Shown: positions 13,630 to 38,221, numbered from the stretch's first letter. The stretch: 64,000 nt of DNA from an uncultured Gammaproteobacteria bacterium (GCA_964344145.1 CAYFME010000001.1:16896-80895), one strand, 5' to 3'. The notes: generated by a model not told the origin, from the sequence alone. Program-made: numbers and translations.

Positions 13630-13665
13630 AAACAGAAGACCCCGCACCGGACAGGTGACGGGGTC
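13621..13665 (-). terminator. candidate minus-strand rho-independent terminator
   Basis: 11-bp GC-rich stem with one bulge: GACCCCGCACC-ggaca-GGTGACGGGGTC (13638-13665). On the minus strand it is followed by TTCTGTTTCTATTCCTT. It sits just downstream of the minus-strand stop at 13770. Confidence 0.4.
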
Positions 13666-13769
13666 ACTCTGTCGATGCGGGGTAGTTCACCCAGCGCCCT
13701 GCGTGGTGCGGGGGCTGCACCCCGGAGGCGGGCACGAGATGCGATTTCTGTGGGATGCGGTTGAGGTTG

Positions 13770-14344: not shown

Positions 14345-14463
14345 GGCTTTCTCCAGTCGACTGGGTGAAGTTGCCGACGTGTCAAACTAGCATACAATGG
14401 CTCTGCCGTCAACCAGCTGTTGACGTGAGGCCATTTTTCTGTTAACCATCCTCTCTCAATTAC

Positions 14464-15030: not shown

Positions 15031-15033
15031 CCT

Positions 15034-15363
15034 ATGGCTAAAATTACGGTTGAAGTCCTGGAGTCGCTACAAAAGGAGGTAGATAAAGGTGGTCCGAAAA
15101 TCAAGAAATTATTCGAAAAACAAAAACGATTCATGGAAATGAATCCCAACTATCCATCACTGGGACGAACCAAGCTGCAGGGCGTCTTTGACAAATATGG
15201 TGATCCACTTTGGGAAATTCGTTTGAACAAAAAGGACAGAATCGTATTTGTGGAAAGAAACAGCGGCGAAAGAGTCATCTGGTTGAAGATTGTTGACCAC
15301 GATTCACTCGTCAGAAAGAACACGATTCATGCAAAAGGAAACTATAAAGACACCCCTTGCTGA
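15034..15363 (+). CDS. small protein with RelE/ParE-like toxin C-terminus (putative cognate toxin)
   Basis: LWEIRLNKKDRIVFVERNSGERVIWLKIVDH resembles the RelE/ParE superfamily motif LYELR..RiiY...v.vL.i.hR. It starts 4 nt after the Panacea gene stop. Confidence 0.45.
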   Translation: MAKITVEVLESLQKEVDKGGPKIKKLFEKQKRFMEMNPNYPSLGRTKLQGVFDKYGDPLWEIRLNKKDRIVFVERNSGERVIWLKIVDHDSLVRKNTIHAKGNYKDTPC

Positions 15364-15368
15364 TTTTT

Positions 15369-16427: not shown

Positions 16428-16549
16428 GGGAATCTCCGTATTATGAATGCTGGGAGAGTATAGCAACAGGACGGAGACCATGGCAATACTCCTGTTTCAG
16501 AACAATTGACAGGCTTTCTTTGTATGCTACCATCGAATCCACAATACCT

Positions 16550-22425: not shown

Positions 22426-23310
22426 ATGAGGCGTTTTCTTATTGGATGCATGCACGCTGTGCGACGTACGAAGGAATTCGTGGGGCTTTTTTATTCGCGA
22501 AAAACGTTGCGAGGGGCGCAATCAATGGATTTTCTTGGGGCTACGCTTGTTGGGCAGGGTTTCATGATTGCGAGCTATCGCACGATGGATCATGAAGCGT
22601 TTGTTCGATCGTTTGATCATCTGTTTGCCTATCTGCACAAACAACGCGCGGGACAGGAGATTACGGTGCTCGACGTTGGAGCGAATATGGGCTTCTACGC
22701 GTTTGCCTTTGCCCAACATCAGCCTGTGCACGTGCTCGCCTACGAGCCATCACGCTCGACCTTTGAAGCGCTCAAGCAAAATATCGCGCACAACAACATG
22801 CGGCACATCGAGGCATTTCCGGTCGCGCTCTTTTCGCAGGAGAAGACCATGACCATGGGAACGCCACGCGGGGCCATCGAGCAACGAGGAATCAACCGCC
22901 TCCTGAAGTATTTTGATCGAGAAGAGTCGGGCTGTCGCAGCATGTACCATGCCGACGATGCCGCAGCCGAGACCATTGATTGTTTTCGTGGTGATGATCG
23001 CCAAGAGATCCTGTCGCGCCCGACCATTGATTTTATCAAGATTGATGTTGAGGGAGCCGAGCTTGAAGCATTGCGTGGTCTTGCAGAAACCGTGAAAGCG
23101 CATGTGCCTGTTTTGCAAATGGAATGGAATCCGGTCGGCTTCGCAGCATCGGGAACGAATCCGCAGACCGTGCTTGATACGCTTCGTTCACTCGGGTATA
23201 CGCATGTGGCAACGGGGTACGCGGATGCTGATTGGTGGAAGCATGGAAGCGCCCTTTCGGGATACCGTGCCCCTGAAGGAAATCACGATCTCGTGTTTTA
23301 TCGTGTATGA
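22426..23310 (+). CDS. FkbM-family methyltransferase
   Basis: VLDVGANMGFYAFAFA and IDFIKIDVEGAELEAL are hallmark FkbM motifs. Confidence 0.75.
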   Translation: MRRFLIGCMHAVRRTKEFVGLFYSRKTLRGAQSMDFLGATLVGQGFMIASYRTMDHEAFVRSFDHLFAYLHKQRAGQEITVLDVGANMGFYAFAFAQHQPVHVLAYEPSRSTFEALKQNIAHNNMRHIEAFPVALFSQEKTMTMGTPRGAIEQRGINRLLKYFDREESGCRSMYHADDAAAETIDCFRGDDRQEILSRPTIDFIKIDVEGAELEALRGLAETVKAHVPVLQMEWNPVGFAASGTNPQTVLDTLRSLGYTHVATGYADADWWKHGSALSGYRAPEGNHDLVFYRV

Positions 23311-24965
23311 GCAAAATCATCGCGCTCTATCGACCAACGCGCATTGATCGTCTCCAAGCACGTATTGCCCACCTGTGTGGGCGGACGGTTTATGAGTGGG
23401 CAAATCCGGATGCCCCGCATCGCATTGCCTTTCCACCGAGCCGTGAATGGACACCCATCATGCTCGATGCGCGCGAACGACTCGCCCGCTACCGTGATCG
23501 GCACTGGCAGCATGCTCCGGATGTGTACATGCGTGATTATGTCTGCAAAACATACGACCTGTTGATTGGAGACTATACCGCCTTCCGAGTTGCTCTCGCC
23601 GAGCAACATGCTGACGATCATGTTCGGATCGTGGGATCACGCGTATTGCGGCGTATTCATGATGGCGAAGCACCAACGCGTTCTCTGATCTTTTTTCTTG
23701 GACTGCCGGTGGCTTTTTTCCTGTTTGTACGCACACTGTTGCGCGCCTCGCTCCTCTCTCTTATGGCAAAGGGTGATGTTGAGCATCCCGAGGTTCTTTA
23801 TGTGCGCAAAAAAGTGTATCCGGATTTGTCGGTGAGTGCGCGATTAGGGGCGGCGGTGCGCGCACAGGATCTGACCTTTGCCGGATCCTTTCTTGCGTTC
23901 GGGCGAGCAAAAGAGCGCTACGGCTTTTTCTTTCTCAATGCGTTTGCTGGTGCCGGGCGTCTTGTCAGACTCGCTGCGTGGCGTGTTGCGCGGACGATGG
24001 TCAGTGATGCACGGTTTTTTTATCGCGCCGGGGTGCCGGTACGATTGTTTTCAACGTATTTGAGGCACGCACTACACGCGGCGATGATCACAGGGCTTAG
24101 GAGTCGGTTGCTTACCGGTGTGCTTGTCGACAAGCCCTTTTTTGTTTTGCTTGCACGGTACAAGCGTGCAGAGCAACGGATGGTGAGTCTAAATGAGTTT
24201 TTCTCTTTTTATCCGTATCGCGGATTTGATTACAATCATTTAGACATTTATTATTCCATGAATGCCATTGATGCCGCACAACAAAACAAACATGGGGGCC
24301 GTATCCACGAGACACGCCATATTCCATTTTTTCGGCAGCATCAAGTCAGTACCGGAAAGGGGATTTCAAAAGATCTTCAGGTGCTTCTTGCGCAATACAA
24401 AACGCGCGTGTTGGCAACCACAACGCAAATCGCCACGCGCGTCTATTCGCAATGGTCCACTGATGAGCTGTGTGCATTCATTCGGACGATCGGGGAGCTT
24501 GCTCGTGCCAATCCCAATCAGTTGTTCATTATCAAAGGAAAAAAAGGCGAACTTCGCGCCATGCCCGCTGATGAACTTCGCGCCATCGAAGCGCAGCCGA
24601 ACGTCTATGTTATCCATTCCGATGTGCCGCGCATGCTCGAGTATAATCAATTTGAAGATCTGCTCCCCAAGGCTAACGTCTTGATCTCCATGGCACATCA
24701 ATCGACAACGGTCTGGCAGGCGATCGCATCTGGGATTCCAGCGATTGCCGTCAACGACGTGCATCCAAAGAGCTTCCTCTCCGAATACAAGCATCTTGAG
24801 GTTCCTCTGGACGCGCTTGCAGACGCATTAACGTATTGGTTGACGGTAACCCCGGAGGCATGGCAAGCATTTCGGGAACAACTTGTCCGGCAGGTGAATA
24901 TCAGCGATGCCGATGGTATGCAGATCGTCGCAAAGGATATATTGAAGATTCAGGAAGATGTATGA
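23307..24965 (+). CDS. hypothetical protein, possibly TagF-like/GT-B polymerase
   Basis: ATGA coupling at both ends. The C-terminal region (IIKGKKGE...VYVIHSDVPRMLEY...VLISMAHQSTTVWQAIASGIPAIAV) loosely resembles the C-terminal nucleotide-binding half of TagF-like enzymes. Weak. Confidence 0.3.
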   Translation: MSKIIALYRPTRIDRLQARIAHLCGRTVYEWANPDAPHRIAFPPSREWTPIMLDARERLARYRDRHWQHAPDVYMRDYVCKTYDLLIGDYTAFRVALAEQHADDHVRIVGSRVLRRIHDGEAPTRSLIFFLGLPVAFFLFVRTLLRASLLSLMAKGDVEHPEVLYVRKKVYPDLSVSARLGAAVRAQDLTFAGSFLAFGRAKERYGFFFLNAFAGAGRLVRLAAWRVARTMVSDARFFYRAGVPVRLFSTYLRHALHAAMITGLRSRLLTGVLVDKPFFVLLARYKRAEQRMVSLNEFFSFYPYRGFDYNHLDIYYSMNAIDAAQQNKHGGRIHETRHIPFFRQHQVSTGKGISKDLQVLLAQYKTRVLATTTQIATRVYSQWSTDELCAFIRTIGELARANPNQLFIIKGKKGELRAMPADELRAIEAQPNVYVIHSDVPRMLEYNQFEDLLPKANVLISMAHQSTTVWQAIASGIPAIAVNDVHPKSFLSEYKHLEVPLDALADALTYWLTVTPEAWQAFREQLVRQVNISDADGMQIVAKDILKIQEDV

Positions 24966-27079
24966 GGGGCGCAACAGGACAACGGGCAGATGCCCCGCAT
25001 GAGATTCGGGAGAACCTTCGTACGTTTTCGAACATTCTTTCTTCGTGCGGAGTTCCGTTTTGGTTGGAGGCAGGGACGGCGCTTGCGGCGCATCGCGATG
25101 GGAAGATTTTTCCCTGGGAGCACGATGTGGATGTGGCGACATGGATTGATCACAAGGAGGGCGTGTTGAGTGCTGTTTCAAAGATGCGCGCACGGGGCTG
25201 GACGGTGAAGATCCAAAAGGGCTTTCCGTACCTCGATAACATTATCCAGGTCACCTTGCCGACGCTTCCAGACGGTCGTGAGCCATTCCCGAATCAATAC
25301 GACATCTATCTGTATCGCCGTGTGGAGGATAAGGCGATGATGCGGTGGATCCATCAGCCAACTGGGCGTTTCGCTTCGCTACAAAAGAAGATGATCTGGT
25401 ACGCAAAGGCATTGGCGCTGCCACGTGGGCGCAAGGCGAGGAGCGTCAAGTGGATTCCGCAATCCCTTCGTCGCGGTGTCTTTGCCCTTGTCTTGCACCT
25501 TCTTGTCCGCTTTGGACAATGCAAATACCACGTGCATCCATTGCGTTTTTTTCAAGAGCTGCGAACGATGGATTTTTACGGTGTTACGGTGCAGATTCCC
25601 AAGGATACCGATGCGTTTCTTGCGCACCGTTATGGACCGGGATGGAAAAGCCCTGATCCGCAATTTAACCAAAGCGGGAAGTGGAAGAAATCAAACGCGC
25701 GCCCCGAGTTACCGTTGCGCCTACTAGGGATGCCACGTATTGAGTATGGATTACAAGAGCGAAGGAATGAGCGTGTGGAGCTTGCACAACAGTTGATGCA
25801 GGCGGGCGTGCGTGCCGGACATCCCGCAGCGTTTATGCGCGATCTTGTCTCTCGCGACGGGAGCACACTCACGATCAATGGGCAGCAGTATCCTATTGAA
25901 AATGGTGTGAAGATGCTTGCGTTTGGCAAGGCGGCCGGCTCAATGGCGGAGGCATTTGTTGAGATGGTTGGAGCGGAGCGTATCAGTGCGGGGTTAGTGT
26001 CCGCTCCGCGTCTTGATACCTCATCGCTGCGCCAATATGCGCAGATTGAATGTATTGAAGGAACCCATCCGTTTGTGAGTGAGCAGAGTCTCTTGGCAGG
26101 ACAGCACGCGCTCGCTTTTGCAGATGCGTGCACGGAATCGGACGTGGTCGTCTGCCTTGTGTCCGGTGGCGGTTCCGCATTGCTCGCCCATCCGGCGGAG
26201 GGGATCACGCTTCAACAGAAAATTGACTTTGTACGCACGTGTATGCAGCGTGGTATTGCGGAGCGAGAATTGAATGTCGTGCGAAAGGGACTCTCAGCGA
26301 TCAAGGGAGGAAAGTTGGCGAGAAAAATGGCTCCTGCGACCATCGTAAACATCATTCTTTCTGACGAGCGGTCGCATCAGATAGAGGCAAATGCATCTGG
26401 CCCAACGGTGCCAAACAATACGACGCTGACTGCCCAAGCCGTGCTGCAAGAAGCGGGGATGTGGGAAGAAACGCCGCGGCATCTGCGTGACGTGCTGGTG
26501 CGCAATCCATCACTCACGGATGATGATCTTGCAGACATCCATCTGGCGACGAGGTTAGTGCCCGGGCGAGATCATGCCCTTGCTGGTATGCGAAAAGCGG
26601 CAGCGCGTTTATGTGATTCCGTTACGGTGCACGAGGATTTTTTTCACGAAAAGACGCACGGAAGTGTTGAGGAAGTCGCGCAACGGTTGGGTACGTTCTT
26701 TCGTAAACAATTTGCGCACGCCGGGGCTGGCCGACACGCAGTACTTGCCCATGGAGAAGTTATGGTTCCGGCAAAAAAAGAAAGTCGTGGTGGCCGATGT
26801 CAGCACCTCGCAGCGCTTATGCTTAATGAATTGCGCTCTATTCCTGCGTTCACGTTTGCGGCGCTGTCCTCAGACGGGTGTGACTTTTTGCACGGAGTGC
26901 ACGGAGCGGTGATCACCGATGCAACCATCGCACGCGTTGACCGTGATCGTATTGACTGCGCAGATGCTGTTGACCAGACAGCAACCCATGCGTTGCATGA
27001 GCGGCTTGGCACGTTAGCAACTGGAGACTACACTGGGACGAATGTAAACGACTACTATATTTTCATCTTCGATACGTAA
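24962..27079 (+). CDS. fusion: LicD-family (phosphocholine/phospho-polyol transferase fold, N) + glycerate 2-kinase MOFRL family (C)
   Basis: N-terminus FWLEAGTALAAHRDGKIFPWEHDVDVA is the LicD/fukutin WLxxGTLLGxxRxxxxIPWDDDxD motif. The C-terminal half carries KMLAFGKAAGSMAEAF (GKAA..MA) and VVCLVSGGGSALLAHPAEGITLQQKIDFVRTCMQRGIAERELNVVRKGLSAIKGGKLA (SGGGSAL...RK.LS.IKGG.LA). Also AALSSDGCDFLHGVHGAVIT, the MOFRL DGxDG motif. Start ATG at 24962 forms an ATGA overlap. Confidence 0.7.
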   Translation: MRGATGQRADAPHEIRENLRTFSNILSSCGVPFWLEAGTALAAHRDGKIFPWEHDVDVATWIDHKEGVLSAVSKMRARGWTVKIQKGFPYLDNIIQVTLPTLPDGREPFPNQYDIYLYRRVEDKAMMRWIHQPTGRFASLQKKMIWYAKALALPRGRKARSVKWIPQSLRRGVFALVLHLLVRFGQCKYHVHPLRFFQELRTMDFYGVTVQIPKDTDAFLAHRYGPGWKSPDPQFNQSGKWKKSNARPELPLRLLGMPRIEYGLQERRNERVELAQQLMQAGVRAGHPAAFMRDLVSRDGSTLTINGQQYPIENGVKMLAFGKAAGSMAEAFVEMVGAERISAGLVSAPRLDTSSLRQYAQIECIEGTHPFVSEQSLLAGQHALAFADACTESDVVVCLVSGGGSALLAHPAEGITLQQKIDFVRTCMQRGIAERELNVVRKGLSAIKGGKLARKMAPATIVNIILSDERSHQIEANASGPTVPNNTTLTAQAVLQEAGMWEETPRHLRDVLVRNPSLTDDDLADIHLATRLVPGRDHALAGMRKAAARLCDSVTVHEDFFHEKTHGSVEEVAQRLGTFFRKQFAHAGAGRHAVLAHGEVMVPAKKESRGGRCQHLAALMLNELRSIPAFTFAALSSDGCDFLHGVHGAVITDATIARVDRDRIDCADAVDQTATHALHERLGTLATGDYTGTNVNDYYIFIFDT

Positions 27080-27080
27080 T

Positions 27081-28067
27081 ATGGACTTACAGCACATCGC
27101 CCTAAACATCTACTCCTTCGGTTATGCTGCTGGATTTCTTAAGGACGATCGATATCCAGATCAAAAGCAGGCAGTAACGATCGACGCGCTTCCAGACCTC
27201 GCCGCATCTCTCGGGCTTGGGGGGATTGAATTTCCGTTTGATTATTTTTTTCGCGATGACGTGTCCGCGGGCGTGGCGTTTATTAAGCGCGTACAGGCGC
27301 GTGGACTGACGGTTGCGATTGATTTTGAGAAATGTGATGCATCGCTGTTGCGCAACGTGCTGCCGCAACTGCGTACACTGGATATCTCCTGGTGCCGGAT
27401 CAAGCTTCCACAGACGCTCTATGGTGGGGCGCAATATAAAGAACACGATTTCGGCATCTGGCGAGGGAGGTTTATCCACCTCTTGCAGGAGTTGCTTCCC
27501 CTCTTACGCGAACGAGACATGCGGTTGCTCGTTGAGAATCATCAAGATCTTTTTATTCAAGATTTGATTGATGTGATCCGTGCGACTGATCCAAGGCACA
27601 TTGGTATCAATTGGGACATAGGCAATAGCTTAGCGATTGGTGCAACACCGCAGCAGTTTTATGACGCGCTTGGACCATACATCGGGAATGTGCATTTGAA
27701 GGATTATCAGATTATGCCGCAGGAGAAGGGGATTGGCCTTGTGCGCTGTGCGCTCGGTGATGGGGTGGTAGATTTTGGATCAATCCTCGGACGCATCAAA
27801 AAAGATCATGGCGCGATGCCGATGTCCATCGAACTTGGGGCGCAAGTGACGCGGATGGTGGACATGCATGAAGATGCCTATTGGAACCAGATGATTCCGG
27901 TTGATCGCGCCCGCCGTGTCGTCTATGAACAATTTGTTGCCGCGCATATGGCAACCGAGCAAAAAACAACACTCTGGCAGCAGCGAAAGGCTGCCGAAGC
28001 CATCGTTGATCGCGAACACGAAGAGGTTAAGCAATCGGTTGACTTTCTCTCTTCGCTTAATGTATAA
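27081..28067 (+). CDS. xylose-isomerase-like TIM-barrel protein (sugar-phosphate isomerase/epimerase; hydroxypyruvate-isomerase-like)
   Basis: LLVENHQDLFIQDLIDVIRATDPRHIGINWDIGNSLAIG...NVHLKD matches the conserved E-H-D-H-E metal-site architecture of the AP_endonuc_2/xylose isomerase-like family. Confidence 0.65.
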   Translation: MDLQHIALNIYSFGYAAGFLKDDRYPDQKQAVTIDALPDLAASLGLGGIEFPFDYFFRDDVSAGVAFIKRVQARGLTVAIDFEKCDASLLRNVLPQLRTLDISWCRIKLPQTLYGGAQYKEHDFGIWRGRFIHLLQELLPLLRERDMRLLVENHQDLFIQDLIDVIRATDPRHIGINWDIGNSLAIGATPQQFYDALGPYIGNVHLKDYQIMPQEKGIGLVRCALGDGVVDFGSILGRIKKDHGAMPMSIELGAQVTRMVDMHEDAYWNQMIPVDRARRVVYEQFVAAHMATEQKTTLWQQRKAAEAIVDREHEEVKQSVDFLSSLNV

Positions 28068-28075
28068 GTCTCCAT

Positions 28076-28894
28076 ATGAAAGGGAGAAACATCATCATTA
28101 CTGGCGGGACGCGCGGGTTGGGGCTTGCCTACGCTCGGCACCTGGCCGAGCAGGGATCCAACCTCGCCCTTGTTGATGTGTCGGCGGATGCGTGCCGGGT
28201 GTATGGGGAGGTGGAGGACGTAGAGGGACTTTGTTCAGAGCTTGCTGGTGATGACTCCATGGTTCGTTTTTATGCATGCGATTTGACGGATCGAGCGGCA
28301 ACGAAGGCAACGATCGATCAAATTGTTCAAGATTTTGCATCCATTGACGGTGTGGTCACCAACGCCGGAGGAGATGTTCGCGGGACACAGCATGATGCCT
28401 CGGGCGGCAAGGCTCCAGAGAATACGTTTTTCATCGCCGATGATGATCACGACACGATTTTTGCGCGCAATTACGACACGTGTCGTAATGCGCTCCGCGC
28501 GGTTGTTCCACACATGCAGCGGCAGGGGTATGGAAAGATCGTAACGGTTGCTTCCGTGAACGCCGGGTTTGGGATGGAGCGAGAGACGACGTACGCAACC
28601 GCGAAAGCGGCGGTGATCCACCTGATGCGTTGTCTTGCCGTACAGCTGCGCCAAGATGGGATCAACGTGAACTGCGTGGCACCGGGACCAACAAAAACGG
28701 GAAGATTTTTGTCGACACTGAAAGATCGTGCGGGACATGATCTTGAAGGAGTGCATTCGACTGCACGACTTGATCGGGTTGCACGCCCGGAAGACATCGC
28801 TCCGGTGGTCGCCTTTTTGTTGTCAGATGCGGCCGATTTTGTCTCTGGAGAAGTGGTTCGGGTTGATGGAGGGCTTTTCACGGCGCCCATATGA
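28076..28894 (+). CDS. SDR-family oxidoreductase
   Basis: IIITGGTRGLGLA Rossmann motif, NAGG, YATAKAA (YxxxK). Confidence 0.8.
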   Translation: MKGRNIIITGGTRGLGLAYARHLAEQGSNLALVDVSADACRVYGEVEDVEGLCSELAGDDSMVRFYACDLTDRAATKATIDQIVQDFASIDGVVTNAGGDVRGTQHDASGGKAPENTFFIADDDHDTIFARNYDTCRNALRAVVPHMQRQGYGKIVTVASVNAGFGMERETTYATAKAAVIHLMRCLAVQLRQDGINVNCVAPGPTKTGRFLSTLKDRAGHDLEGVHSTARLDRVARPEDIAPVVAFLLSDAADFVSGEVVRVDGGLFTAPI

Positions 28895-29787
28895 CCGATG
28901 ACGAGCGAAACATTGATACGCAACTCGCAAACATGATGTTCGCTGTGCAAAAGCAACTTGAGACGCGCTCGATCGGTATGGATTGGAAGCAAGCGTTCGT
29001 GCTGACGGCGCAAAACGTCCTAGAAACAGTTGGAGCGTCGTCGGACGTTTCGCGTGAGAAGGTGCAAGAGGCAGCAGAGGTGTTTCTAAGCGACTTTTGT
29101 GCCATCCCGATGCGTGATACGGTGTATCACGACGTGCCAGATGCGTTGCAGGCTCTGGCAACGGTAGCGGGCCATGTTGTGCTTTGGACTCGTGGCGATG
29201 TGGTGAACACACATCAAGCGCAGAAAGTGGAACAGTCAGGCATTGGCGAGATGTTGCGTTTGCTACAAGAGAAGCATGAGGTGAATGTGACCGAGCTGAT
29301 CGCTGCGCGCAAGATGGCGCGAACCGTCGAACATGTTGATGCAAGATGGCGGCAGGCGGGAGAGCCTGAGCAGCTCGTGATCTCCGTATACGAAGATTCG
29401 GTTGAAAATAGCGTTGCCGTTGATTCCCTACTGCGCACATGGGCTTCGCGCAAAGGAGTGGCCCTTGCATTGTTGCATCTTCGGGCAACATTAGGCCGAC
29501 GCGCCCACGAGCCAACGCCGCAAGATTTGCCTATATCGGTGGTGAGCGTAACGTCGCTCACGGACGCCGTTGATGTCATGCGCGGTGTCCTTGAGCAGGA
29601 GCAATTGACCCGTAACGAACATATTGCGCTGCTGGATTTTGACGGGGCGCTCTGCGATAATCGGCTTATGCGTTGCAGGCAAGCTGGTGTCATGGAGAAA
29701 CATCTTCGCATGCTATTGTCTCCAGACGATCAACACCATTTTGATAAACACTATTGGTATGAACAAGGATCCAAAACAGGCATTTGA
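28891..29787 (+). CDS. hypothetical protein (possible HAD-like motif near C-terminus)
   Basis: ATGA coupling. Only LLDFDGALCDN (DxDG-like) stands out. No confident family assignment. Confidence 0.35.
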   Translation: MTDDERNIDTQLANMMFAVQKQLETRSIGMDWKQAFVLTAQNVLETVGASSDVSREKVQEAAEVFLSDFCAIPMRDTVYHDVPDALQALATVAGHVVLWTRGDVVNTHQAQKVEQSGIGEMLRLLQEKHEVNVTELIAARKMARTVEHVDARWRQAGEPEQLVISVYEDSVENSVAVDSLLRTWASRKGVALALLHLRATLGRRAHEPTPQDLPISVVSVTSLTDAVDVMRGVLEQEQLTRNEHIALLDFDGALCDNRLMRCRQAGVMEKHLRMLLSPDDQHHFDKHYWYEQGSKTGI

Positions 29788-30538
29788 TTTTACAGGCGCC
29801 ACTGCGCTCATTGCGGGTGGTGCGACCGGACTCGGGCTCGAGATGGCGCGCGGACTGCTCGCGCATGGATGTCGCGTTGCTCTGATGGGGCGTCGTAAAG
29901 AGTTGTGCGAACAAGTAGCAGCGGAGCTATGTGCAACGTATGATGATCGTTGCGTGGCGATTCCGGGTGATATTTCCGATGAGGCTTCCATGCGCTCTGT
30001 AGCACAGCAGGTAGCGGCACAATTTGACGGCGAGCTCAATATTGCCATCAATTCTGCGGGATTTAACATCCGCAATCCTATTGAGAAGGTCTCGCTTGAT
30101 GAGTGGGAGTCGGTGCAGCGTACGAATGCGACAGGCGGCTTTCTCTTTGCACGCGAGCTTTTCCCTCTTTTGAAGAAGGCGTCCTTCGGGCGGCTGATCA
30201 ATGTGGTGAGCATTTTTGGTTCACACTCGTTTCCAGATCGCGTGAGTTACTCCTCGAGCAAAGGATCGCTTTTGCAACTCACGCGCACACTCGCGATTGA
30301 GTGGGCGTCCTATGGGATTACGGTTAATGCGATTTCGCCTGGACCGTTTTTGACAGACATCAATAAGGCTGTGCTCGATAACAAAGAGAACTACGAGAAG
30401 TTTTGCCAAAAGATTCCGATTGGTCGATTTGGTGACCCGCAAGAGGTGACGACGAGTGCGTTGTTTCTCGCATCGCCGGCATCAACCTATGTCACGGGAG
30501 CAGACATTATGGTCGATGGAGCGTGGACAATAACCTAG
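29759..30538 (+). CDS. SDR-family oxidoreductase
   Basis: Start at the internal ATG giving MNKDPKQAFDFTGATALIAGGATGLGL (Rossmann). NSAG, YSSSKGS (YxxxK). The long listed N-terminal extension overlaps the upstream gene and is unlikely. Confidence 0.75.
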   Translation: MNKDPKQAFDFTGATALIAGGATGLGLEMARGLLAHGCRVALMGRRKELCEQVAAELCATYDDRCVAIPGDISDEASMRSVAQQVAAQFDGELNIAINSAGFNIRNPIEKVSLDEWESVQRTNATGGFLFARELFPLLKKASFGRLINVVSIFGSHSFPDRVSYSSSKGSLLQLTRTLAIEWASYGITVNAISPGPFLTDINKAVLDNKENYEKFCQKIPIGRFGDPQEVTTSALFLASPASTYVTGADIMVDGAWTIT

Positions 30539-30563
30539 CTCTCGTGTACAACATCCAACAGAT

Positions 30564-31295
30564 ATGAACGCCATTATCTACGCTGCCGGCGCGGGCAATC
30601 GTCTGGGTGCTGCGATACATAAAGGGCTCGTGACGGTTGCGGGCGTACCTATGATTGACTATGCACTGCTGCGCGCTGCGCGAGGAAATCCTCAACAGAT
30701 TATTGTGGTCACCGGTCACTTTGCAGACGCGTTGCGTGAGCACATCGGAGCGGACTATCGCGGGATCCCGGTGCGCTACGTGCATAACGATCATTATCAG
30801 CTGCGCGGTAACATGAGCAGTCTGTGGGCGGCGCGTGATTACTGTACTGACGACGTCTTCTTCACAACGAGTGACCTCGTTTGTTCCTTGCAAGACATCG
30901 ATGCGTTTTTTGCTGCTCCACCCGTGAATAAAATCCTCATTGACACGAATCCGCAGTATCATACAGATCCCGATCCGGTAAAAGTGACGGTTGAGCAAGA
31001 GCGCATTGTGTCGGTGCGCAAGCAGATCGATGGGAGTGTCCATGGAGCCGCCATTGGCATGTATCACTTTAGCAAGAAGGCGATGCAACAGATGCTTGAC
31101 GCCATCGAGGCGCGGATCGCCGCAGGAGGCATTGATACGTCCCTTTATTGGGCTATTGATGACATTATGGGCGATGTGCATACCGTGCCCGTGTATTGTA
31201 AAGGGTTACCGTGGTTTGATGTGGATACGCCGGAAGAACTCCGCGCAGCGGAGCAAGCGGTAAGTAATGCCCAAGCTGATTATCTTGATGTATGA
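30564..31295 (+). CDS. sugar/alcohol-phosphate nucleotidyltransferase (NTP_transferase fold, LicC/IspD/CofC-like)
   Basis: MNAIIYAAGAGNRLG...GLVTVAGVPMIDY is the G-x-G-x-R-L nucleotidyltransferase signature. 243 aa. Confidence 0.7.
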   Translation: MNAIIYAAGAGNRLGAAIHKGLVTVAGVPMIDYALLRAARGNPQQIIVVTGHFADALREHIGADYRGIPVRYVHNDHYQLRGNMSSLWAARDYCTDDVFFTTSDLVCSLQDIDAFFAAPPVNKILIDTNPQYHTDPDPVKVTVEQERIVSVRKQIDGSVHGAAIGMYHFSKKAMQQMLDAIEARIAAGGIDTSLYWAIDDIMGDVHTVPVYCKGLPWFDVDTPEELRAAEQAVSNAQADYLDV

Positions 31296-32233
31296 AAATA
31301 CTTGTTGTTGGGGGTTCCGGGTTTATCGGAAGCCATGTCGCAGATCAACTTTCTGACGCAGGACACGACGTTGCGATTTTCGCACCGGATCGTTCACCTT
31401 ATGTACGAGACGACCAACGGATGATTGTTGGTGATATTACCAATGCCGACGATGTCGATCGCGCGGTCGCAGGACATGATATTGTTTATAATTTTGCAAG
31501 TGTGGCCGCCATCAAAGAGGCAAGCGAAAATCCAATCGCGGTCACGCGCGTGAATGTCCTTGGGACCGTGCATCTGCTGGAGGCCTGCAGAACGCACAAC
31601 GTGAGGAGATTTATTCTGGCAAGTTCGGTCTATGTGTATAGTCACACGGGGTCGATTTATAAAGCGAGTAAGCAGGCGGCCGAACGGTTTGTGGAGGCGT
31701 ATCTGGAGCGGTTTGATGCGCCGGCGCACACGATTGCGCGCGTGGGCACCGTGTATGGTCCCCGTGCCCAAGAGTGGAACGGCTTTCGTCAGCTCATCAC
31801 CGAGGCGGTGACAAAACAATCGGTCGTGTACAACGGATCGGGCGATGAGGTGCGTGCCTTTGTGCACGTGCACGATGTTGCCGCAAGTTTTGTCGATCTG
31901 CTCGCCCCTGAATATGAAAATGCGCACGTGATTATTGCCGGACAAGAGCAGGTCCGCGCGCGCGATTTTGTTGATATGCTTGCGGAGATGTTCGGCGGCG
32001 CCCTTGATGTAACCTTTGCGCATGAGGGAAGCGCGCGCCCAGATCATTACACCATGACGCCGTTTAGTTACCGTCCGAAAATGGCAAAGAAGATGACGCG
32101 CAGCACCTACATTGATCTTGGGCAGGGGATCCTTGAATACGTACATGAGCTGCAGTTAGAAAAGAACGGCGTTGATCACACCGGGATTCCAACGTTGCAG
32201 ATCGAGCATAACGGCGTTGATCACACCGTATGA
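31292..32233 (+). CDS. NAD-dependent nucleotide-sugar epimerase/dehydratase
   Basis: MKILVVGGSGFIGSHV Rossmann motif, YKASK (YxxxK). The C-terminal tail is created by an 18-bp tandem-type repeat. Confidence 0.75.
   Translation: MKILVVGGSGFIGSHVADQLSDAGHDVAIFAPDRSPYVRDDQRMIVGDITNADDVDRAVAGHDIVYNFASVAAIKEASENPIAVTRVNVLGTVHLLEACRTHNVRRFILASSVYVYSHTGSIYKASKQAAERFVEAYLERFDAPAHTIARVGTVYGPRAQEWNGFRQLITEAVTKQSVVYNGSGDEVRAFVHVHDVAASFVDLLAPEYENAHVIIAGQEQVRARDFVDMLAEMFGGALDVTFAHEGSARPDHYTMTPFSYRPKMAKKMTRSTYIDLGQGILEYVHELQLEKNGVDHTGIPTLQIEHNGVDHTV
32165..32227 (+). repeat. perfect 18-bp direct repeat AACGGCGTTGATCACACC x2, 45 bp apart, at the 3' end of the epimerase gene
   Basis: Copies at 32165-32182 and 32210-32227. 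Encodes the duplicated NGVDHT in the tail ...NGVDHTGIPTLQIEHNGVDHTV*. Confidence 0.8.
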
Positions 32234-33003
32234 ATATCATCGCCATTATTCCAGCGCGAATGGCCTCGACACGCCTGCCGGGAAAGCCCATGAAGCCTAT
32301 TTGTGGGATGCCCATGGTCGGGCATGTGTATGCGCGCGCGAAGATGAGTGAAAAGTTGACAGGAGTGTATATTGCCACCTGCGACCAGGAGATTATGGAT
32401 TACGCTGGCAGCATTGGCGCTCCCGCTTATATGACCAGTGATACGCATGAGCGCTGTACCGACCGCGTTGCCGAGGCGATGGCCTATGTGGAGCGTGATA
32501 CGGGAGAAGAGGCAGATATTGTCTTGGTCTTGCAGGGGGATGAGCCGATGACAACGCCCGAGATGATTGATGCAGCCTTGGCACCTATGATGGACGATCC
32601 ATCCATTGATGTTGTGAATTTGATGGCACCGCTTGCCAGTGCCAAAGAGCATGATGATAAGAATGAGCCGAAGGTGGTGGTAGATAAGCAAGGAAATGCG
32701 ATGTATATGTCGCGCGAGGCGATTCCGTCGCGCTGGAAGCAAGGAGAGGATGTGCCGATGATGAAGCAGGTGTGCGTGATGCCGTTTCGCCGGCAAGCGT
32801 TGCTTGACTTTAATGCTATGGAGCAAACGCCTTGCGAGATTGCCGAGTCCATCGACATGTTGCGCCTCCTTGAAAACGGCAAGCCTGTGCGGATGGTCCT
32901 ATCTCCAACCGCTGCAACGTATAGCGTGGACACGCCGGAGGACTTGGCGCATGTTGAGCAAGCGATGCGGGATGATCCGCTGGTTGTCCAGTACGCAGCA
33001 TGA
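32230..33003 (+). CDS. KdsB-like CMP-ulosonic acid synthetase (CTP_transf_3 family)
   Basis: IIAIIPARMASTRLPGKPMKPICGMPMV...YIATCDQEI...MTSDTHERCTDRVAEA parallels KdsB (IIPARYASTRLPGKPL...HQSGTDR). ATGA coupling to the upstream gene. Confidence 0.7.
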   Translation: MNIIAIIPARMASTRLPGKPMKPICGMPMVGHVYARAKMSEKLTGVYIATCDQEIMDYAGSIGAPAYMTSDTHERCTDRVAEAMAYVERDTGEEADIVLVLQGDEPMTTPEMIDAALAPMMDDPSIDVVNLMAPLASAKEHDDKNEPKVVVDKQGNAMYMSREAIPSRWKQGEDVPMMKQVCVMPFRRQALLDFNAMEQTPCEIAESIDMLRLLENGKPVRMVLSPTAATYSVDTPEDLAHVEQAMRDDPLVVQYAA

Positions 33004-33025: not shown

Positions 33026-33054
33026 TTGACAAATCTAGGAGCTTACTCTATATT
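33026..33054 (+). promoter_or_regulatory. near-consensus sigma70 promoter
   Basis: TTGACA (33026-33031), 17-nt spacer, TATATT (33049-33054). It lies immediately after the long glycan operon ends and upstream of the high-GC orphan gene, with a ~150-nt leader. Confidence 0.5.
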
Positions 33055-33947: not shown

Positions 33948-34535
33948 ATGAAGCGCCGGCTGAAATCAAAAGGCGAACAAAGCGTCTACGTTTTCATCGA
34001 CGCATCTAACCTGTGGGAGGCGCAGAAGGCCAAGGGGAAGATGTTTGATTTTGAAAAGCTGGTCGCTTATCTGAAAGACGAGTTTTCAACGCCAGATGTT
34101 GAGGTGTTTTATTACACCGCCTATCCCGCAGACGGAACACGCTCATACAGCCTGGATCCAAAGCACAAGTTTTTCGCATTTCTAAAAAAAGGCCTTAGAT
34201 TCCATGTACGTAAGAAGCCGCTGAAGCGCATCACGATCGACAGCGACGAAGGTCAATCAGTACAAGAGAAAGGTAATATGGATGTGGAGATGACGATTGA
34301 TGCCCTCCACCACCGAGATAAGTATGACGTTGCCGTCTTTTTCACGGGTGACTCGGATTTCCTCGCTTTGGTGAACTATCTAAAAAACAACGGAAAGAAG
34401 GTATACATTTTCTCATCTAAGAACAATGTCTCACATGAGCTGAAAACAGGTGGTCATGGATACCGAGACATTCTCAAAATCGACAAGGACATCTGGGGGC
34501 GTGATCTGCGCCACAGAGGACAAAAGAAACGATAA
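33948..34535 (+). CDS. NYN-domain (LabA-like) protein, putative RNase, stand-alone
   Basis: VYVFIDASNLW...DVAVFFTGDSDFLALVNYLK are the NYN/PIN-like acidic motifs. AT-rich gene between GC-rich flanks. Confidence 0.65.
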   Translation: MKRRLKSKGEQSVYVFIDASNLWEAQKAKGKMFDFEKLVAYLKDEFSTPDVEVFYYTAYPADGTRSYSLDPKHKFFAFLKKGLRFHVRKKPLKRITIDSDEGQSVQEKGNMDVEMTIDALHHRDKYDVAVFFTGDSDFLALVNYLKNNGKKVYIFSSKNNVSHELKTGGHGYRDILKIDKDIWGRDLRHRGQKKR

Positions 34536-34705
34536 AGGAAAGCACCCTCCGCAAGGAGGGTGCTTCTTGGATGTAATACCCTAACAGTCTATGGCTAGAC
34601 TGAAAGACACTAAAATCATAGCCTGTGGAGTCGATTCTGTCAATAGTGGTCCCGTCGCGTCAAGTTGACGCGAAAAGGCCAAATGAGTACCCTGAGGCTA
34701 GAAAA

Positions 34706-36607
34706 ATGAAGGTTTGTCAAGGTATTAGCCACATGAAAGCGAGCATTATCATCCGTACACTCAACGAGGAGAAGCACATTGGAAATCTCCTTGCGGCGAT
34801 CAACAAGCAGACACATCGGGACTATGAAATTATCCTGGTTGATTCTGGTTCGAGCGATCGCACGATGGAGATCGCGCGTCCACACTGCGACGTTGTCACA
34901 ACGATTGAGAGCAGAGATTTTACCTTTGGATACTCACTGAACGAAGGGTGCAAGCGTGCAAGCGGTGATGTGCTTATCATCACGTCCGCACATGCGTATC
35001 CGGCAGATGAACATTGGCTCGCGGAGCTTGTTGCACCGTTTTGTGACCCGGACGTCGCCATGGCGTATGGGCGGCAGGTTGGTGCACGAGAGACAAAACA
35101 TTCTGAACGAAATGATTTTGAGCGTATTTTTGGCTCCATCGATACGCCGCGACATTCGCTTCCCTATTTTGCCAACAATGCAAATGCGGCCGTACGTGCA
35201 GAGCTCTGGAAAGAGGAACCATTTGATGCCGCACTGACGGGACTTGAAGATATCGCGTGGGCACGCCATTGGTTTGAGCGTGGAAAGAACATCACATACG
35301 TTGCCACTGCCTCCGTGCATCATATCCATGAGGAAGTCTGGCCACAGGTGTACAACCGGTACCGTCGCGAGGCGATCGCGGCGCGCCGCATGGGACTTCC
35401 GGAACCACCGATGGCAAGCATCAACCCACTCATAGCAACAAAGCGGGCACTGCATGATTTTGCGACGTCGCCTCTTCGTACGTGGGCAACGAAGTATGGA
35501 ATGGACATTCTGCGCTTTCGCTTTGAGCAGTGGCGCGGGTCGCACCACGGGTGGCATAAAGATTCCACCGAAGATTTGCCGGATATTCGCACAGAGCTTT
35601 TTTATTCCTCTATGACCAATTATGGCGTGCGCATTGAATCCCCTGGGCAGGCGCGACTCACGCAGCTTCCCGTTCCAGAGGTTAAGCCGGGAGATGTCCT
35701 GATTCGTGTGGCTTACACGGGTATTTGCGCGACAGATCTGGAGGTATACGAGGGTACGCTCGGGTACTACAAAACAGGGCGCGCAAGCTATCCGATTGTT
35801 CCGGGACATGAGTTTTCCGGGACCATCGCGCGTGTCGGCGCGCGGGTAACGGATCTTGCCGTGGGGGATCCTGTTGTTGGCGAGTGTATCCAGTCGTGCC
35901 GTCGCTGCGCTCATTGTAAGCGCGAGGCGTTTACCGCCTGCCCGGATCGCATTGAGGTGGGCGTGATGAACAAACACGGTAGCTATGCGCAGTACGTGGT
36001 GGTGCCTGCCGTGTACGTGCACAAACTTCCCGCGGGCGTTCCTCTCTCTCGCGCGGCGCTTGTGGAACCGCTTGCCGTCGTGTTGCGTGGTGTGCGGCGA
36101 CTTGAACCGTTTTTGAAGGAACCGCTGCGCGTAGGAGTTGTTGGCGCAGGGCCGATTGGAAATCTTGCCGCCCAGGTGCTTTCCCATCGCGGGCATGACG
36201 TAACCGTATTCGAGCGCAATAGGGCGCGCCGCGCACACCTTCCGGATTCAATCGCCACAAAAGCAGACCTGTACAACGTGCATGAGTATGATATTCTCGT
36301 CGAGGCCACGGGCAATCGCGATGCTCTGCAAACGGTGCTCCGCGACAGTCGCGTAGGCGCAACGGCACTACTCCTTGGTTTCCCGTACGGATCCTTGCCG
36401 TATAACTTTGAAGAAGTGGTTGGCGGTGATCGTGTGATCATCGGTTCGGTCGGAGGATCGCGCGAGGATTTCATTGCGGCAACGCGATGGCTTGTTAAGC
36501 TCGATTGTACGGCATTTCATGCAGGGGTTTTTCCGCTTGTGGAATTTGAAACTGCATGGAATGCGCACCGCGAAGGGAAATTCTTGAAGACAATGCTCGC
36601 CTTATGA
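34706..36607 (+). CDS. fusion: family 2 glycosyltransferase (N) + Zn-dependent medium-chain alcohol dehydrogenase (C)
   Basis: N-terminus SIIIRTLNEEKHIGNLLAAINKQTHRDYEIILVDSGSSD (GT-A). C-terminal half VLIRVAYTGICATDLEVYEG...PIVPGHEFSGTI...GECIQSCRRCAHCK carries the Zn-binding signature plus structural-Zn Cys cluster of MDR alcohol/threonine dehydrogenases. Start at the ATG with an upstream GAGG. Confidence 0.7.
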   Translation: MKVCQGISHMKASIIIRTLNEEKHIGNLLAAINKQTHRDYEIILVDSGSSDRTMEIARPHCDVVTTIESRDFTFGYSLNEGCKRASGDVLIITSAHAYPADEHWLAELVAPFCDPDVAMAYGRQVGARETKHSERNDFERIFGSIDTPRHSLPYFANNANAAVRAELWKEEPFDAALTGLEDIAWARHWFERGKNITYVATASVHHIHEEVWPQVYNRYRREAIAARRMGLPEPPMASINPLIATKRALHDFATSPLRTWATKYGMDILRFRFEQWRGSHHGWHKDSTEDLPDIRTELFYSSMTNYGVRIESPGQARLTQLPVPEVKPGDVLIRVAYTGICATDLEVYEGTLGYYKTGRASYPIVPGHEFSGTIARVGARVTDLAVGDPVVGECIQSCRRCAHCKREAFTACPDRIEVGVMNKHGSYAQYVVVPAVYVHKLPAGVPLSRAALVEPLAVVLRGVRRLEPFLKEPLRVGVVGAGPIGNLAAQVLSHRGHDVTVFERNRARRAHLPDSIATKADLYNVHEYDILVEATGNRDALQTVLRDSRVGATALLLGFPYGSLPYNFEEVVGGDRVIIGSVGGSREDFIAATRWLVKLDCTAFHAGVFPLVEFETAWNAHREGKFLKTMLAL

Positions 36608-37273: not shown

Positions 37274-38221
37274 ATGGCAAAATGGAACATCCTTATCTCG
37301 GCACCGTATTTTCAACCGGTGGTCGATGAGTATAAAGACTTTTTTGATCAACACGATATGCAGATTACGGTTCCGGAGGTGCGTGAGCGCCTCAATGAGG
37401 AGGAATTACTTGCGTGTGTTGAAGGAATGGATGGTGTTGTTTGCGGGGATGATCATTTCACCGAGCGCGTGCTCGATCAATGCAAAGATCTTAAGGTGAT
37501 TTCTAAATGGGGGACAGGTATTGATTCCATTAACAAGCCGGCAGCGGAATCTCGGGGCATCGCCGTGAAAAATACTCCCAACGCCTTCACCGACTGCGTT
37601 GCGGACACCACGGTGGGGTACATCTTGAATTTTGCTCGGCAGCTATCCGCGATGGATCGAAAAATGAAGCAGGGGGGATGGGAGAAGATGATGTCGCGTA
37701 CACTCAAGGAGTCAACGGTTGGTGTCCTTGGTCTCGGGAATATCGGACGCGCGGTTGTCAGACGTCTGGTGCCTTTTGGCCCTCGCATCGTTGGGTTTGA
37801 TAGTTTCGCGCCTCCTTCTGATGAATTCGTTCAAGAGACGGGCATCGAAGTGATGTCGATGGACGATGTCATTCGTGAGGCGGACTACTTGACCCTCCAT
37901 TGTTTTCTGGATGAAAACAGCAGGCATCTGATTAATGCCGACCGGCTGGCGCAAATGAAAAACGACGCCGTGATTGTCAATACCGCACGAGGTCCGCTTA
38001 TTCACGAGCAGGCGCTTATCGAGGCCCTGCAAGCGGGAACCATTGGCGGTGCGGCCCTAGATGTGTTTGAGTTCGAGCCGCTTCCAGAGGAGAGTCCGTT
38101 GCGACGCATGGATAACGTGCTCATCGCCCCGCATAATTCAAATGCAAGTCCGGAGGCATGGAGACGCATTCACGAGTCCACCCTCGCCAATCTCCTGGAA
38201 GAGCTACATCGCTATGCATAA
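37274..38221 (+). CDS. D-isomer-specific 2-hydroxyacid dehydrogenase (glycerate/hydroxypyruvate or phosphoglycerate dehydrogenase-like)
   Basis: VGVLGLGNIGRAV NAD-binding motif. NTARGPLIHEQALIEAL...GAALDVFEFEP catalytic-domain signature. Confidence 0.8.
   Translation: MAKWNILISAPYFQPVVDEYKDFFDQHDMQITVPEVRERLNEEELLACVEGMDGVVCGDDHFTERVLDQCKDLKVISKWGTGIDSINKPAAESRGIAVKNTPNAFTDCVADTTVGYILNFARQLSAMDRKMKQGGWEKMMSRTLKESTVGVLGLGNIGRAVVRRLVPFGPRIVGFDSFAPPSDEFVQETGIEVMSMDDVIREADYLTLHCFLDENSRHLINADRLAQMKNDAVIVNTARGPLIHEQALIEALQAGTIGGAALDVFEFEPLPEESPLRRMDNVLIAPHNSNASPEAWRRIHESTLANLLEELHRYA

Follow-up and report, generated by a model that had tools for sequence, protein, structure and literature searches.

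In the Lic pathway of Streptococcus and Haemophilus, a choline kinase (LicA), a CTP:phosphocholine cytidylyltransferase (LicC) and a phosphocholine transferase (LicD) act in succession. The stretch of DNA analyzed here, 64,000 nucleotides from an uncultured Gammaproteobacteria bacterium (GCA_964344145.1, CAYFME010000001.1:16896-80895; hereafter the window), is one huge co-directional glycan cluster, in which a single gene joins a LicD domain to a DUF4147/MOFRL kinase and a gene for a COG1213-type nucleotidyltransferase (NTPT) lies downstream. The window resembles the Lic pathway in that i) a kinase, a COG1213-type cytidylyltransferase and a LicD-family transferase are encoded in one operon, predicted here to serve a surface glycan, ii) its LicD domain shares a family with LicD, and its NTPT with LicC, and iii) the fusion gene and the NTPT gene stand in one co-directional, tightly spaced string that is conserved in more than 10 loci. 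It differs in that the kinase is of the DUF4147/MOFRL type, not the choline/APH type of LicA, and is fused to LicD; in that its LicD is predicted to transfer an acid instead of choline; and in that extra genes for a TIM-barrel protein and short-chain dehydrogenases/reductases (SDRs) are present. With moderate confidence, we favor a Lic-type decoration of a surface glycan, in which the MOFRL kinase would replace the choline-kinase step, followed by activation with cytidine diphosphate (CDP) and transfer by LicD.

A second related system is the pathway to ceramide diphosphoglycerate in Caulobacter crescentus, in which CpgD converts CTP and phosphoglycerate, with a preference for D-2-phosphoglycerate, to CDP-glycerate (PMC12275187, PMC13228409), and CpgA, a CDP-alcohol-type transferase, is the presumed user of CDP-glycerate (PMC11324152). 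CpgD belongs to the COG1213/IPCT-like family and has 4JD0 as its best structural match; CDP-glycerate was first described in 2025 in this sphingolipid pathway, and the authors noted that a dedicated source of phosphoglycerate was unknown (PMC12275187, PMC13228409). The window shares the nucleotidyltransferase family with Caulobacter, 4JD0 being a common match (for CpgD by its published description), and its donor is predicted to be the same or similar, i.e. CDP-glycerate from 2-phosphoglycerate. In Caulobacter, however, the acceptor is a sphingolipid, the transferase is a membrane CDP-alcohol phosphatidyltransferase instead of a soluble LicD domain in a glycan cluster, and no dedicated kinase is known.

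A third route uses Gtp1 as reductase, Gtp3 as glycerol-2-phosphotransferase, Gtp2 as cytidylyltransferase and WchX as transferase. With these roles, it has in common with the window the succession of a reductase, a kinase that phosphorylates a C3 compound at its 2-position, a cytidylyltransferase and a phosphotransferase acting on the capsule, but its substrate is glycerol, not an acid. This is the CDP-2-glycerol pathway of Streptococcus pneumoniae (PMC1391919). As for the predicted product, 2- and 3-phosphoglyceric acid on bacterial glycans are known chemically (PMC9912281), and D-glyceramide 2-phosphate substituents also occur on bacterial glycans (PMC9912281, PMC6222762). Glyceric acid and glyceramide in phosphodiester linkage are known from bacterial O-antigens. 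Literature searches on LicD with glycerate, on glycerate kinases in O-antigen or nonulosonic-acid clusters, and on glyceramide-phosphate clusters returned no described pathway, and in the searchable literature we found neither a LicD-MOFRL or NTP-transferase-MOFRL fusion, as the initial annotation of this DNA had supposed for the former, nor a paper assigning genes to the attachment of phosphoglycerate or glyceramide to glycans. Glyceric acid is not mentioned in the text of a review of E. coli O-antigens.

The fusion gene and its two halves

The open reading frame (ORF) extends on the + strand from 24836 to 27079, and the fusion gene within it starts at ATG 24962 and stops at 27079, a start consistent both with where the orthologues begin and with two ENA assemblies in which a 705-aa gene was called. 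The gene is tightly coupled to both of its neighbors: its ATG and the stop codon TGA of the upstream gene (23307-24965) overlap in the sequence ATGA, and the gap to the downstream TIM-barrel gene is 1 nt. Pfam domains in the protein are LicD (PF04991, aa 30-66, 40.9 bits against a cutoff of 22.6), DUF4147 (aa 275-512, 190 bits) and MOFRL (aa 593-697, 61 bits), all above the curated thresholds. The initial description of an ORF joining an N-terminal LicD domain to a complete MOFRL kinase is therefore borne out by Pfam, by alignments with PDB entries and by the predicted fold, and the motifs quoted for it, FWLEAGTALAAHRDGKIFPWEHDVDVA in the N-terminal part and FGKAAGSMAEA, SGGGSALL...RKGLSAIKGGKLA and SDGCDF in the kinase, are all found in the translation. 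With an AlphaFold2 model of the fusion, built on a 94-sequence alignment (pLDDT 93.6, pTM 0.82), Foldseek returned 1X3L and 2B8N for the C-terminal half (TM 0.74-0.82 on target) and FKRP for the N-terminal domain. As part of the Lic-type explanation, and with the same moderate confidence, the protein is predicted to be soluble and bifunctional.

The LicD domain is complete, not a fragment, and the Pfam match understates its extent: 36 stand-alone LicD proteins (252-275 aa) align over aa 14-262 with 37-57% identity, and the NCBIfam model Mf1 matches aa 188-232. In 39 members of the clade, A37-G38-T39, D55-V-D57 and D114 are at least 95% conserved, together with about 40 other positions. G38, D55-x-D57 and D114 constitute the signature of the Pol-beta nucleotidyltransferases (hG[GS], the metal motif [DE]h[DE]h and a third carboxylate), and the C-terminal motif of the domain is R223-Y-G-P-G-W228. 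Human FKRP (6KAJ) aligns with the domain at the DxD segment (WEHDVDV in the window vs WDYDVDL) and at the C-terminal segment (FLAHRYGPGW vs FLELKFGPG), and Foldseek ranks FKRP (6KAL/6KAK/6KAM, E 5e-8 to 6e-7) first for this half, followed by the nucleotidyltransferase fold of ANT(2''). By profile, nucleotidyltransferase signature and FKRP catalytic fold, the domain is a member of the LicD/fukutin family. With FKRP/fukutin and the bacterial LicD-family polyol-phosphate transferases it shares the nucleotidyltransferase-fold domain and the metal motif W-[DE]-x-D-V-D, the C-terminal motif [KR]-[FY]-G-P-G (RYGPGW in the window, KFGPG in FKRP) and, as a prediction, the CDP-X-dependent transfer of phospho-X. 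In contrast to these enzymes, its donor is predicted to be a CDP-acid, not CDP-ribitol or CDP-choline, it has no stem or zinc-finger domain, and it carries a fused kinase. No transmembrane segment was predicted.

The C-terminal 430 aa align end to end with PH0495 (1X3L, E 9e-38) and TM1585 (2B8N), the Foldseek TM-score to 2B8N being 0.82. In an alignment of 13 members of the window's kinase subclade with 115 canonical kinases, 43 columns are at least 85% conserved in both sets, including GK323, SGGGS401-405, KGG448-450, SD467-468, GGR610-612, DGxD638-641 and TGTNxxD691-697; the family motif set (GK, SGGGS, KGG, SD, GE, GGR, DGxD and TGTNxxD) is intact. In domains, full length, fold and invariant motifs, this half is a class II glycerate 2-kinase like TM1585, PH0495 and GckA of the serine cycle, with which it shares the two-domain fold, the end-to-end alignment and the 43 invariant positions. 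It differs from them in its identity of only about 25-30%, in 11 replaced positions (see below), and in that members of its subclade are confined to glycan clusters, where they are fused to LicD or stand next to it. To our knowledge, the roles described so far for the MOFRL/DUF4147 family are limited to central carbon metabolism.

An assembly or frameshift artefact joining two genes, which the initial annotation had raised, or a decaying pseudogene can be rejected as the source of the fusion. The 2118-nt ORF shows 0 differences between two separately assembled ENA contigs (runs ERR2281800 and ERR2281801), both of which carry the 705-aa gene call, and the same architecture is present at 57-58% identity in two proteins from other samples, P0001 (715 aa) and P0002 (707 aa; P and L numbers denote proteins and loci), the latter on a 17-kb contig with downstream genes as in the window. 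The linker (aa ~263-280) is in frame and can be aligned with its counterpart in unfused relatives, where the C-terminal tail of LicD, a 23-nt intergenic spacer and the N-terminus of the kinase take its place; the two-domain model is confident; and all the catalytic motifs are intact.

While the fusion is kept in these three lineages, the next relatives, about a dozen loci, have LicD and the kinase as adjoining separate genes (L002/3, L004-6, L007/8, L050-52, L054 and L069), with spacing ranging from a 23-nt spacer (L002) to an 8-nt overlap (L069) and kinase identities of 54% (P0003), 39% (P0004), 38% (P0005) and 29% (L069). The LicD and kinase identities fall together (57/54, 39/39, 40/38 and 37/29%), and the two co-diverge. 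The fusion itself is very rare, as a search for the same architecture among 1.84 billion cluster representatives by exhaustive phmmer gave a single representative with both domains in one chain; an exact look-up of the protein found no record, although its neighbors have records.

JGI/ENA metagenomes yielded 13 loci altogether, most of them marine and AT-rich, and in every locus examined the kinase subclade lies inside a glycan cluster. A contig scan of 185,579 species-representative genomes with the subclade alignment did not find the subclade, and hence no cultured host among these genomes, but only canonical kinases with 27-33% identity (two partial matches, 39-40%). It has to be considered that the kinase acts after the transfer, e.g. 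on a glycan-borne hydroxy acid, or is a housekeeping glycerate kinase fused by chance. Both variants are very improbable in our view, since the subclade is confined to glycan clusters and missing from the species representatives, and since the independent NTPT fusions described below argue for a soluble phospho-product that is then nucleotidylated.

The nucleotidyltransferase and independent kinase fusions

The initial annotation regarded the 243-aa product of the NTPT gene as LicC/CofC-like. The CofC part of this did not hold, since no match to the CofC profiles (PF01983, TIGR03552) and no CofC among the PDB sequence or fold matches was found. The best PDB sequence matches are the CTP:inositol-1-phosphate cytidylyltransferases (IPCTs) 2XME (1.9e-10), 4MND and 4JD0, with LicC a weak match; the IPCT domain ranks first in NCBIfam; and the AlphaFold2 model (pLDDT 93.3) retrieves, in order, the IPCTs 2XME/4MND, the phosphonate cytidylyltransferase PntC (6PD1) and the T. 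maritima IMPCT (4JD0). To judge from these matches, its closest relatives are cytidylyltransferases that activate small phospho-compounds with CTP, not sugar-1-phosphates. R13, K20 and D104 are invariant and correspond to R16, K26 and D112 of CpgD (PMC12275187), so that the NTPT has both the IPCT/IMPCT-like COG1213 fold and the catalytic Arg, Lys and Asp of the CpgD type. When the glycerate-contacting residues of CpgD (N90, N110, S170, M147 and K161) were mapped by spacing only, N83 and K153 appeared to be kept. A word-based search gave 10 NTPT homologues, none from Caulobacter.

Two long proteins among the top representatives, P0292 (708 aa) and P0309 (665 aa), have an N-terminal NTP_transferase/NTP_transf_3 domain fused to DUF4147 and MOFRL. 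The N-terminal domain of P0292 is a full-length homologue of the window NTPT (25% identity over 241 aa, pairwise E 1e-23). P0292 and the window stem from one metagenome project but from different organisms (41% GC for that of P0292); the gene of P0292 is flanked on one side by genes for an aminotransferase and a 2-hydroxyacid dehydrogenase (2-Hacid_dh), and on the other by genes for a methyltransferase, a CDP-OH_P_transf protein, two TagF-like Glyphos_transf proteins and an ABC exporter. P0309 is followed by two SDRs and a haloacid dehalogenase (HAD) hydrolase. In the serine cycle, serine is converted via hydroxypyruvate and glycerate to 2-phosphoglycerate, and the order aminotransferase, 2-hydroxyacid dehydrogenase, kinase in L072 reproduces this route. 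The context of P0292 mirrors that of CpgD and CpgA in Caulobacter (PMC11324152), and its locus is a candidate cluster for a phosphoglycerate-containing, teichoic-acid-like polymer. These fusions and their context indicate that in several lineages a cytidylyltransferase-type enzyme uses the phosphorylated product of a MOFRL kinase; the product of this second enzyme appears, from the gene neighborhoods, to feed CDP-alcohol-type phosphotransferases. The LicD-kinase fusion of the window may be read as a second Rosetta stone for the same pathway, completing with the NTPT what looks like a Lic-like triad.

When the window proteins were compared by tblastn with all the related loci, a conserved core emerged: LicD, kinase, PF01261 TIM barrel, SDR1, (a 298-aa protein), SDR2, COG1213-type nucleotidyltransferase and extended SDR. 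The core lies within nonulosonic-acid glycan clusters, usually together with genes for a protein of about 550 aa, a KdsB-like enzyme, a 2-hydroxyacid dehydrogenase, a HAD hydrolase and a fusion of a FAD/GLF domain with NeuB and SAF. Synteny is kept across loci at 29-57% identity, and the order kinase, TIM barrel, SDR1, SDR2, NTPT persists down to 29% kinase identity.

The predicted pathway and the identity of the acid

The Lic-like route is the most likely because the NTPT is CpgD-family-like and because MOFRL kinases are fused to such NTPTs beside CDP-alcohol-type phosphotransferases; conserved synteny, P0292 and P0309, and the CpgD precedent all back the succession of kinase, nucleotidyltransferase and LicD proposed initially. 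We infer the activities, the nucleotide, the acid and the acceptor as follows. i) The C-terminal domain of the fusion would use ATP to phosphorylate the 2-hydroxyl of D-glycerate or a close small 2-hydroxy acid, supplied by the products of the co-conserved 2-hydroxyacid dehydrogenase, TIM-barrel and two SDR genes. ii) The NTPT, as an IPCT/CpgD-family enzyme, would convert CTP and the phospho-acid to a CDP-activated acid, e.g. CDP-glycerate. iii) The LicD/FKRP-type domain would move the phospho-acid from this donor to a hydroxyl of a nonulosonic-acid glycan built by the surrounding cluster, releasing CMP and leaving a phosphodiester-linked, glycerate-type substituent. That the first and last enzymes are fused is probably the sign of a physical complex by which the phosphorylated intermediate is kept out of glycolysis.

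Several observations weigh against this proposal or against glycerate as its substrate. The modules can be separated: the order kinase, 2-hydroxyacid dehydrogenase, TIM barrel, SDR1, SDR2, NTPT occurs without LicD in L056 and L061, and 2-hydroxyacid dehydrogenase, extended SDR, HAD hydrolase and LicD occur without a kinase or NTPT within 10 kb in L070/L071 and on the contig of P0144. A plain route from hydroxypyruvate to glycerate has no need of the TIM barrel, the two sugar-acid-type SDRs or the extended SDR, all of which invariably accompany the kinase subclade. In the NTPT, the glycerate-contacting Asn110 of CpgD would be replaced by Thr102, as mapped by spacing only. In the kinase, 11 positions that are at least 75% conserved in the 115 canonical kinases are replaced and fixed in the subclade (A367S, D373S, I400V, I434E, N536R, E615H, L618A, D645G, A646V, F679H and T688G), E615H adjoining the GGR motif, so that the substrate may not be D-glycerate. 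Most of the canonical residues (e.g. E615, L618, N536 and I400) are still present in P0292, the NTPT-kinase fusion whose context points most clearly to glycerate, but not in the window subclade. Finally, D-2-phosphoglycerate is an intermediate of glycolysis, and a dedicated kinase for it is therefore not obviously needed.

The separability of the modules fits another explanation, in which the kinase, TIM barrel, two SDRs, NTPT and extended SDR make a sugar or sugar acid activated with a nucleoside diphosphate (NDP), for a glycosyltransferase or as an ulosonic-acid precursor, while LicD uses an unrelated CDP-alcohol and the fusion is one of merged operon neighbors. The extended SDR has NDP-hexose and NDP-uronic-acid enzymes as its best PDB matches, the SDRs resemble gluconate-5- and glucose-1-dehydrogenases, and L069 has an HpcH/HpaI aldolase and a KdsB-like gene directly after the NTPT. 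We nevertheless consider this unlikely, since three lineages retain the fusion, at 57-58% identity, and LicD and kinase stay adjacent down to 37/29% identity, the relatives of the NTPT act on small phospho-compounds instead of sugar-1-phosphates, the NTPT-kinase fusions adjoin CDP-alcohol-type phosphotransferases, and we know of no MOFRL kinase that phosphorylates a sugar.

Within the Lic-type explanation, the most specific sub-case is the route of the initial annotation, from hydroxypyruvate via D-glycerate and D-2-phosphoglycerate to CDP-D-glycerate, from which LicD adds D-glycerate-2-phosphate, with the TIM barrel as hydroxypyruvate isomerase. Every characterized MOFRL enzyme that we know of is a glycerate 2-kinase (2B8N is annotated as such in the PDB), the 2-hydroxyacid dehydrogenase gene adjoins that of the kinase in L056, L061 and L072, as would suit the glycerate/hydroxypyruvate-type dehydrogenase noted at the outset, an aminotransferase and a 2-hydroxyacid dehydrogenase precede the NTPT-kinase fusion in L072, and D-2-phosphoglycerate is the preferred substrate of CpgD (PMC12275187). 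Set against these are the 11 substitutions, the canonical residues retained in P0292, the TIM barrel without a match to Hyi or OtnI, and the two SDRs and extended SDR, which this route leaves without a role; as an exact route it is thus possible but tentative. By the same token D-glycerate, favored by family precedent and by the association with the dehydrogenase, is a doubtful choice as the exact kinase substrate, and another 2-hydroxy acid of similar kind, formed by the TIM/SDR module, has to be taken seriously in its place.

Judged by the residues that it has exchanged, the kinase departs from the canonical glycerate kinases at the 11 positions, and the signature is bimodal, being carried by 19 of the 134 full-length top representatives. 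The NCBIfam glycerate 2-kinase equivalogs give 140 and 136 bits against cutoffs of 670 and 550, in itself weak evidence since those models are lineage-specific. A PDB search found no ligand-bound structure of the DUF4147/MOFRL family, so that specificity cannot be read from the residues. Conceivably, and as tentatively as for D-glycerate, the subclade uses a different small 2-hydroxy acid made by the module of TIM barrel, two SDRs and 2-hydroxyacid dehydrogenase; possible candidates, as part of this suggestion, are L-glycerate, arising by an oxidize-isomerize-reduce inversion, or a 3-deoxy-aldonic acid. In that case the CDP-activated acid would be one never described before, the phosphodiester-linked acid would represent a new class of acidic substituent on the nonulosonic-acid glycans of uncultured, largely marine bacteria, and the fused first and last enzymes would form a channeling complex with the cytidylyltransferase.

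Returning to the Lic-type pathway as a whole, it has a new kinase family and probably a new class of donor, a CDP-acid. If it is true, the MOFRL/DUF4147 family would gain a second role, in cell-surface biosynthesis, the donors of the LicD family would extend from CDP-alcohols to CDP-acids, and a marker would become available with which anionic decorations of glycans could be traced in uncultured bacteria from the sea and other environments. The locus, with the related NTP-transferase-kinase fusions, also yields a testable gene set, namely a MOFRL kinase and an IPCT-like cytidylyltransferase together with a LicD, TagF-like or CDP-alcohol transferase.

The surrounding cluster

The glycan cluster contains two NeuB-type synthases, three CTP_transf_3 genes, many glycosyltransferases and methyltransferases, Wzy, a Bac_transf initiating transferase and an ABC exporter. 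Features of the fusion gene, its neighbors and the related fusions are listed in Table 1.

Table 1. Coordinates of the fusion gene, its domains, the conserved neighboring genes and the NTP-transferase-MOFRL fusions of other loci
Feature	Position	Strand	Basis
Candidate glycosyltransferase, 552 aa	23307..24965	+	Weak BFO_1060 glycosyltransferase match
LicD/FKRP-type phosphotransferase + DUF4147+MOFRL kinase fusion gene, 705 aa	24962..27079	+	Pfam, PDB alignments, duplicate assemblies, AlphaFold2/Foldseek
LicD domain, aa ~14-262	25001..25747	+	Pfam, FKRP alignment, NCBIfam, stand-alone homologues
Linker, aa ~263-280	25748..25801	+	Alignment with unfused relatives
DUF4147 (N-terminal Rossmann-like domain, class II glycerate kinase), aa 275-512	25784..26497	+	Pfam, PDB alignment
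MOFRL domain, aa 593-697	26738..27052	+	Pfam, PDB alignment
Xylose-isomerase-like TIM barrel (PF01261)	27081..28067	+	Pfam, NCBIfam, PDB search
SDR1, classical SDR, glucose-1-dehydrogenase-like, conserved in the core	28076..28894	+	Pfam, NCBIfam
298-aa protein without family	28891..29787	+	No Pfam, NCBIfam or PDB match
SDR2, classical SDR	29759..30538	+	Best matches gluconate 5-dehydrogenase, hexonate and polyol dehydrogenases
COG1213-type (IPCT/PntC/LicC-like) nucleotidyltransferase (NTPT), 243 aa, presumed CTP:phospho-X cytidylyltransferase	30564..31295	+	Pfam, NCBIfam, PDB, Foldseek
Extended SDR (epimerase/dehydratase family)	31292..32233	+	Pfam, PDB search, tblastn
KdsB-like CMP-ulosonic acid synthetase (CTP_transf_3), conserved near the core	32230..33003	+	Pfam, NCBIfam, tblastn
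D-2-hydroxyacid dehydrogenase (phosphoglycerate dehydrogenase / glyoxylate-hydroxypyruvate reductase-like)	37274..38221	+	Pfam, NCBIfam
NTP-transferase-MOFRL fusion P0292	L072:3835-5961, L073:4868-6994
NTP-transferase-MOFRL fusion P0309	L074:206-2203

The genes at 27081-28067, 30564-31295 and 37274-38221 had been placed correctly from the start and carry PF01261, NTP_transf_3 and 2-Hacid_dh, respectively. The TIM barrel always follows the kinase in the subclade; it matches PF01261 with 63 bits and UlaE below threshold, and its best PDB match is Art22 (1e-6). Of its earlier assignment as a hydroxypyruvate isomerase, the general PF01261 fold stands, but with Art22 as the best PDB match and no match to the Hyi or OtnI family models, the likeness is one of fold only, and we did not retain that identity. 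The 298-aa protein, for which Pfam, NCBIfam and PDB searches gave no match, has a sequence like HAD motif I (LLDFDGALCDN) near its C-terminus instead of its N-terminus, a weak resemblance; its orthologues are found only in the closest relatives (L001 and L002/L003), more distant ones having an ordinary HAD hydrolase elsewhere in its place.

The extended SDR, whose best PDB matches are GalE, UXS, MoeE5 and a UDP-GlcA epimerase, has an orthologue accompanying LicD even in loci without the kinase. At 31607, within its gene, there is a single-base difference between the window and the ERR2281800 assembly (L066), and in L066 the gene is called as two pieces (105 and 199 aa), but it is intact in the ERR2281801 assembly and in the window; the difference is either population heterogeneity or an assembly error.

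The 552-aa protein, whose gene is translationally coupled to the fusion gene, has counterparts of 27-52% identity in almost all the related clusters, some of which contain two. It has no confident family but weak matches to the glycosyltransferase domain of BFO_1060 (Tannerella), because of which it is a candidate glycosyltransferase, and to DUF6365; we regard it as a candidate nonulosonic-acid transferase. In the window, a promoter and terminator scan gave counts not clearly above shuffled expectation, and no tRNAs were found.

Other architectures in the cluster are also worth noting. At 16397-18949, an 850-aa protein combines a FAD amine-oxidase/UDP-galactopyranose-mutase-like domain with a NeuB nonulosonic-acid synthase and SAF, an unusual architecture for such a synthase, which is kept in L070 (795 aa, 56% identity) and on the JGI contig of P0144 (798 aa). 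Since its annotated TTG start overlaps the opposite-strand gene at 15369-16481, the true start may be later. That gene, encoding a methyltransferase (-), and a SocA/Panacea antitoxin-domain gene (14464-15030, +) lie in a segment, 13630-16481, that interrupts the co-directional cluster. A first nonulosonic-acid sub-cluster includes a 649-aa fusion of a DegT/DnrJ/EryC1 aminotransferase with an NAD-dependent epimerase/dehydratase (2912-4861), together with a PIG-L deacetylase, a formyltransferase, a GT2 glycosyltransferase, NeuB (7068-7892) and CTP_transf_3 (7889-8575). In L069, the most distant of the related loci (23% GC), an HpcH/HpaI-type pyruvate aldolase gene (15326-16045) lies between the NTPT and KdsB-like genes, a hint that an aldol condensation, and not a NeuB/KdsA-type synthase, yields a 2-keto-3-deoxy acid in this locus.

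Downstream of the core, 0.9 kb with no confident gene precede a gene for an NYN-domain protein, a predicted RNase (33948-34535), which is enclosed in the glycan cluster; the strongest promoter-like match of the region is at 33026-33054. A 660-aa fusion of a GT2 glycosyltransferase and a zinc-type alcohol dehydrogenase (34625-36607) is kept in L002/L003 (639 aa, 57% identity), with a PF04199 cyclase gene following it in both. A split transketolase, its N-terminal and pyrimidine/C-terminal halves encoded by two genes (46774-48533), is also located inside the glycan cluster, and the pair recurs in L007, adjoining a CTP_transf_3 gene.

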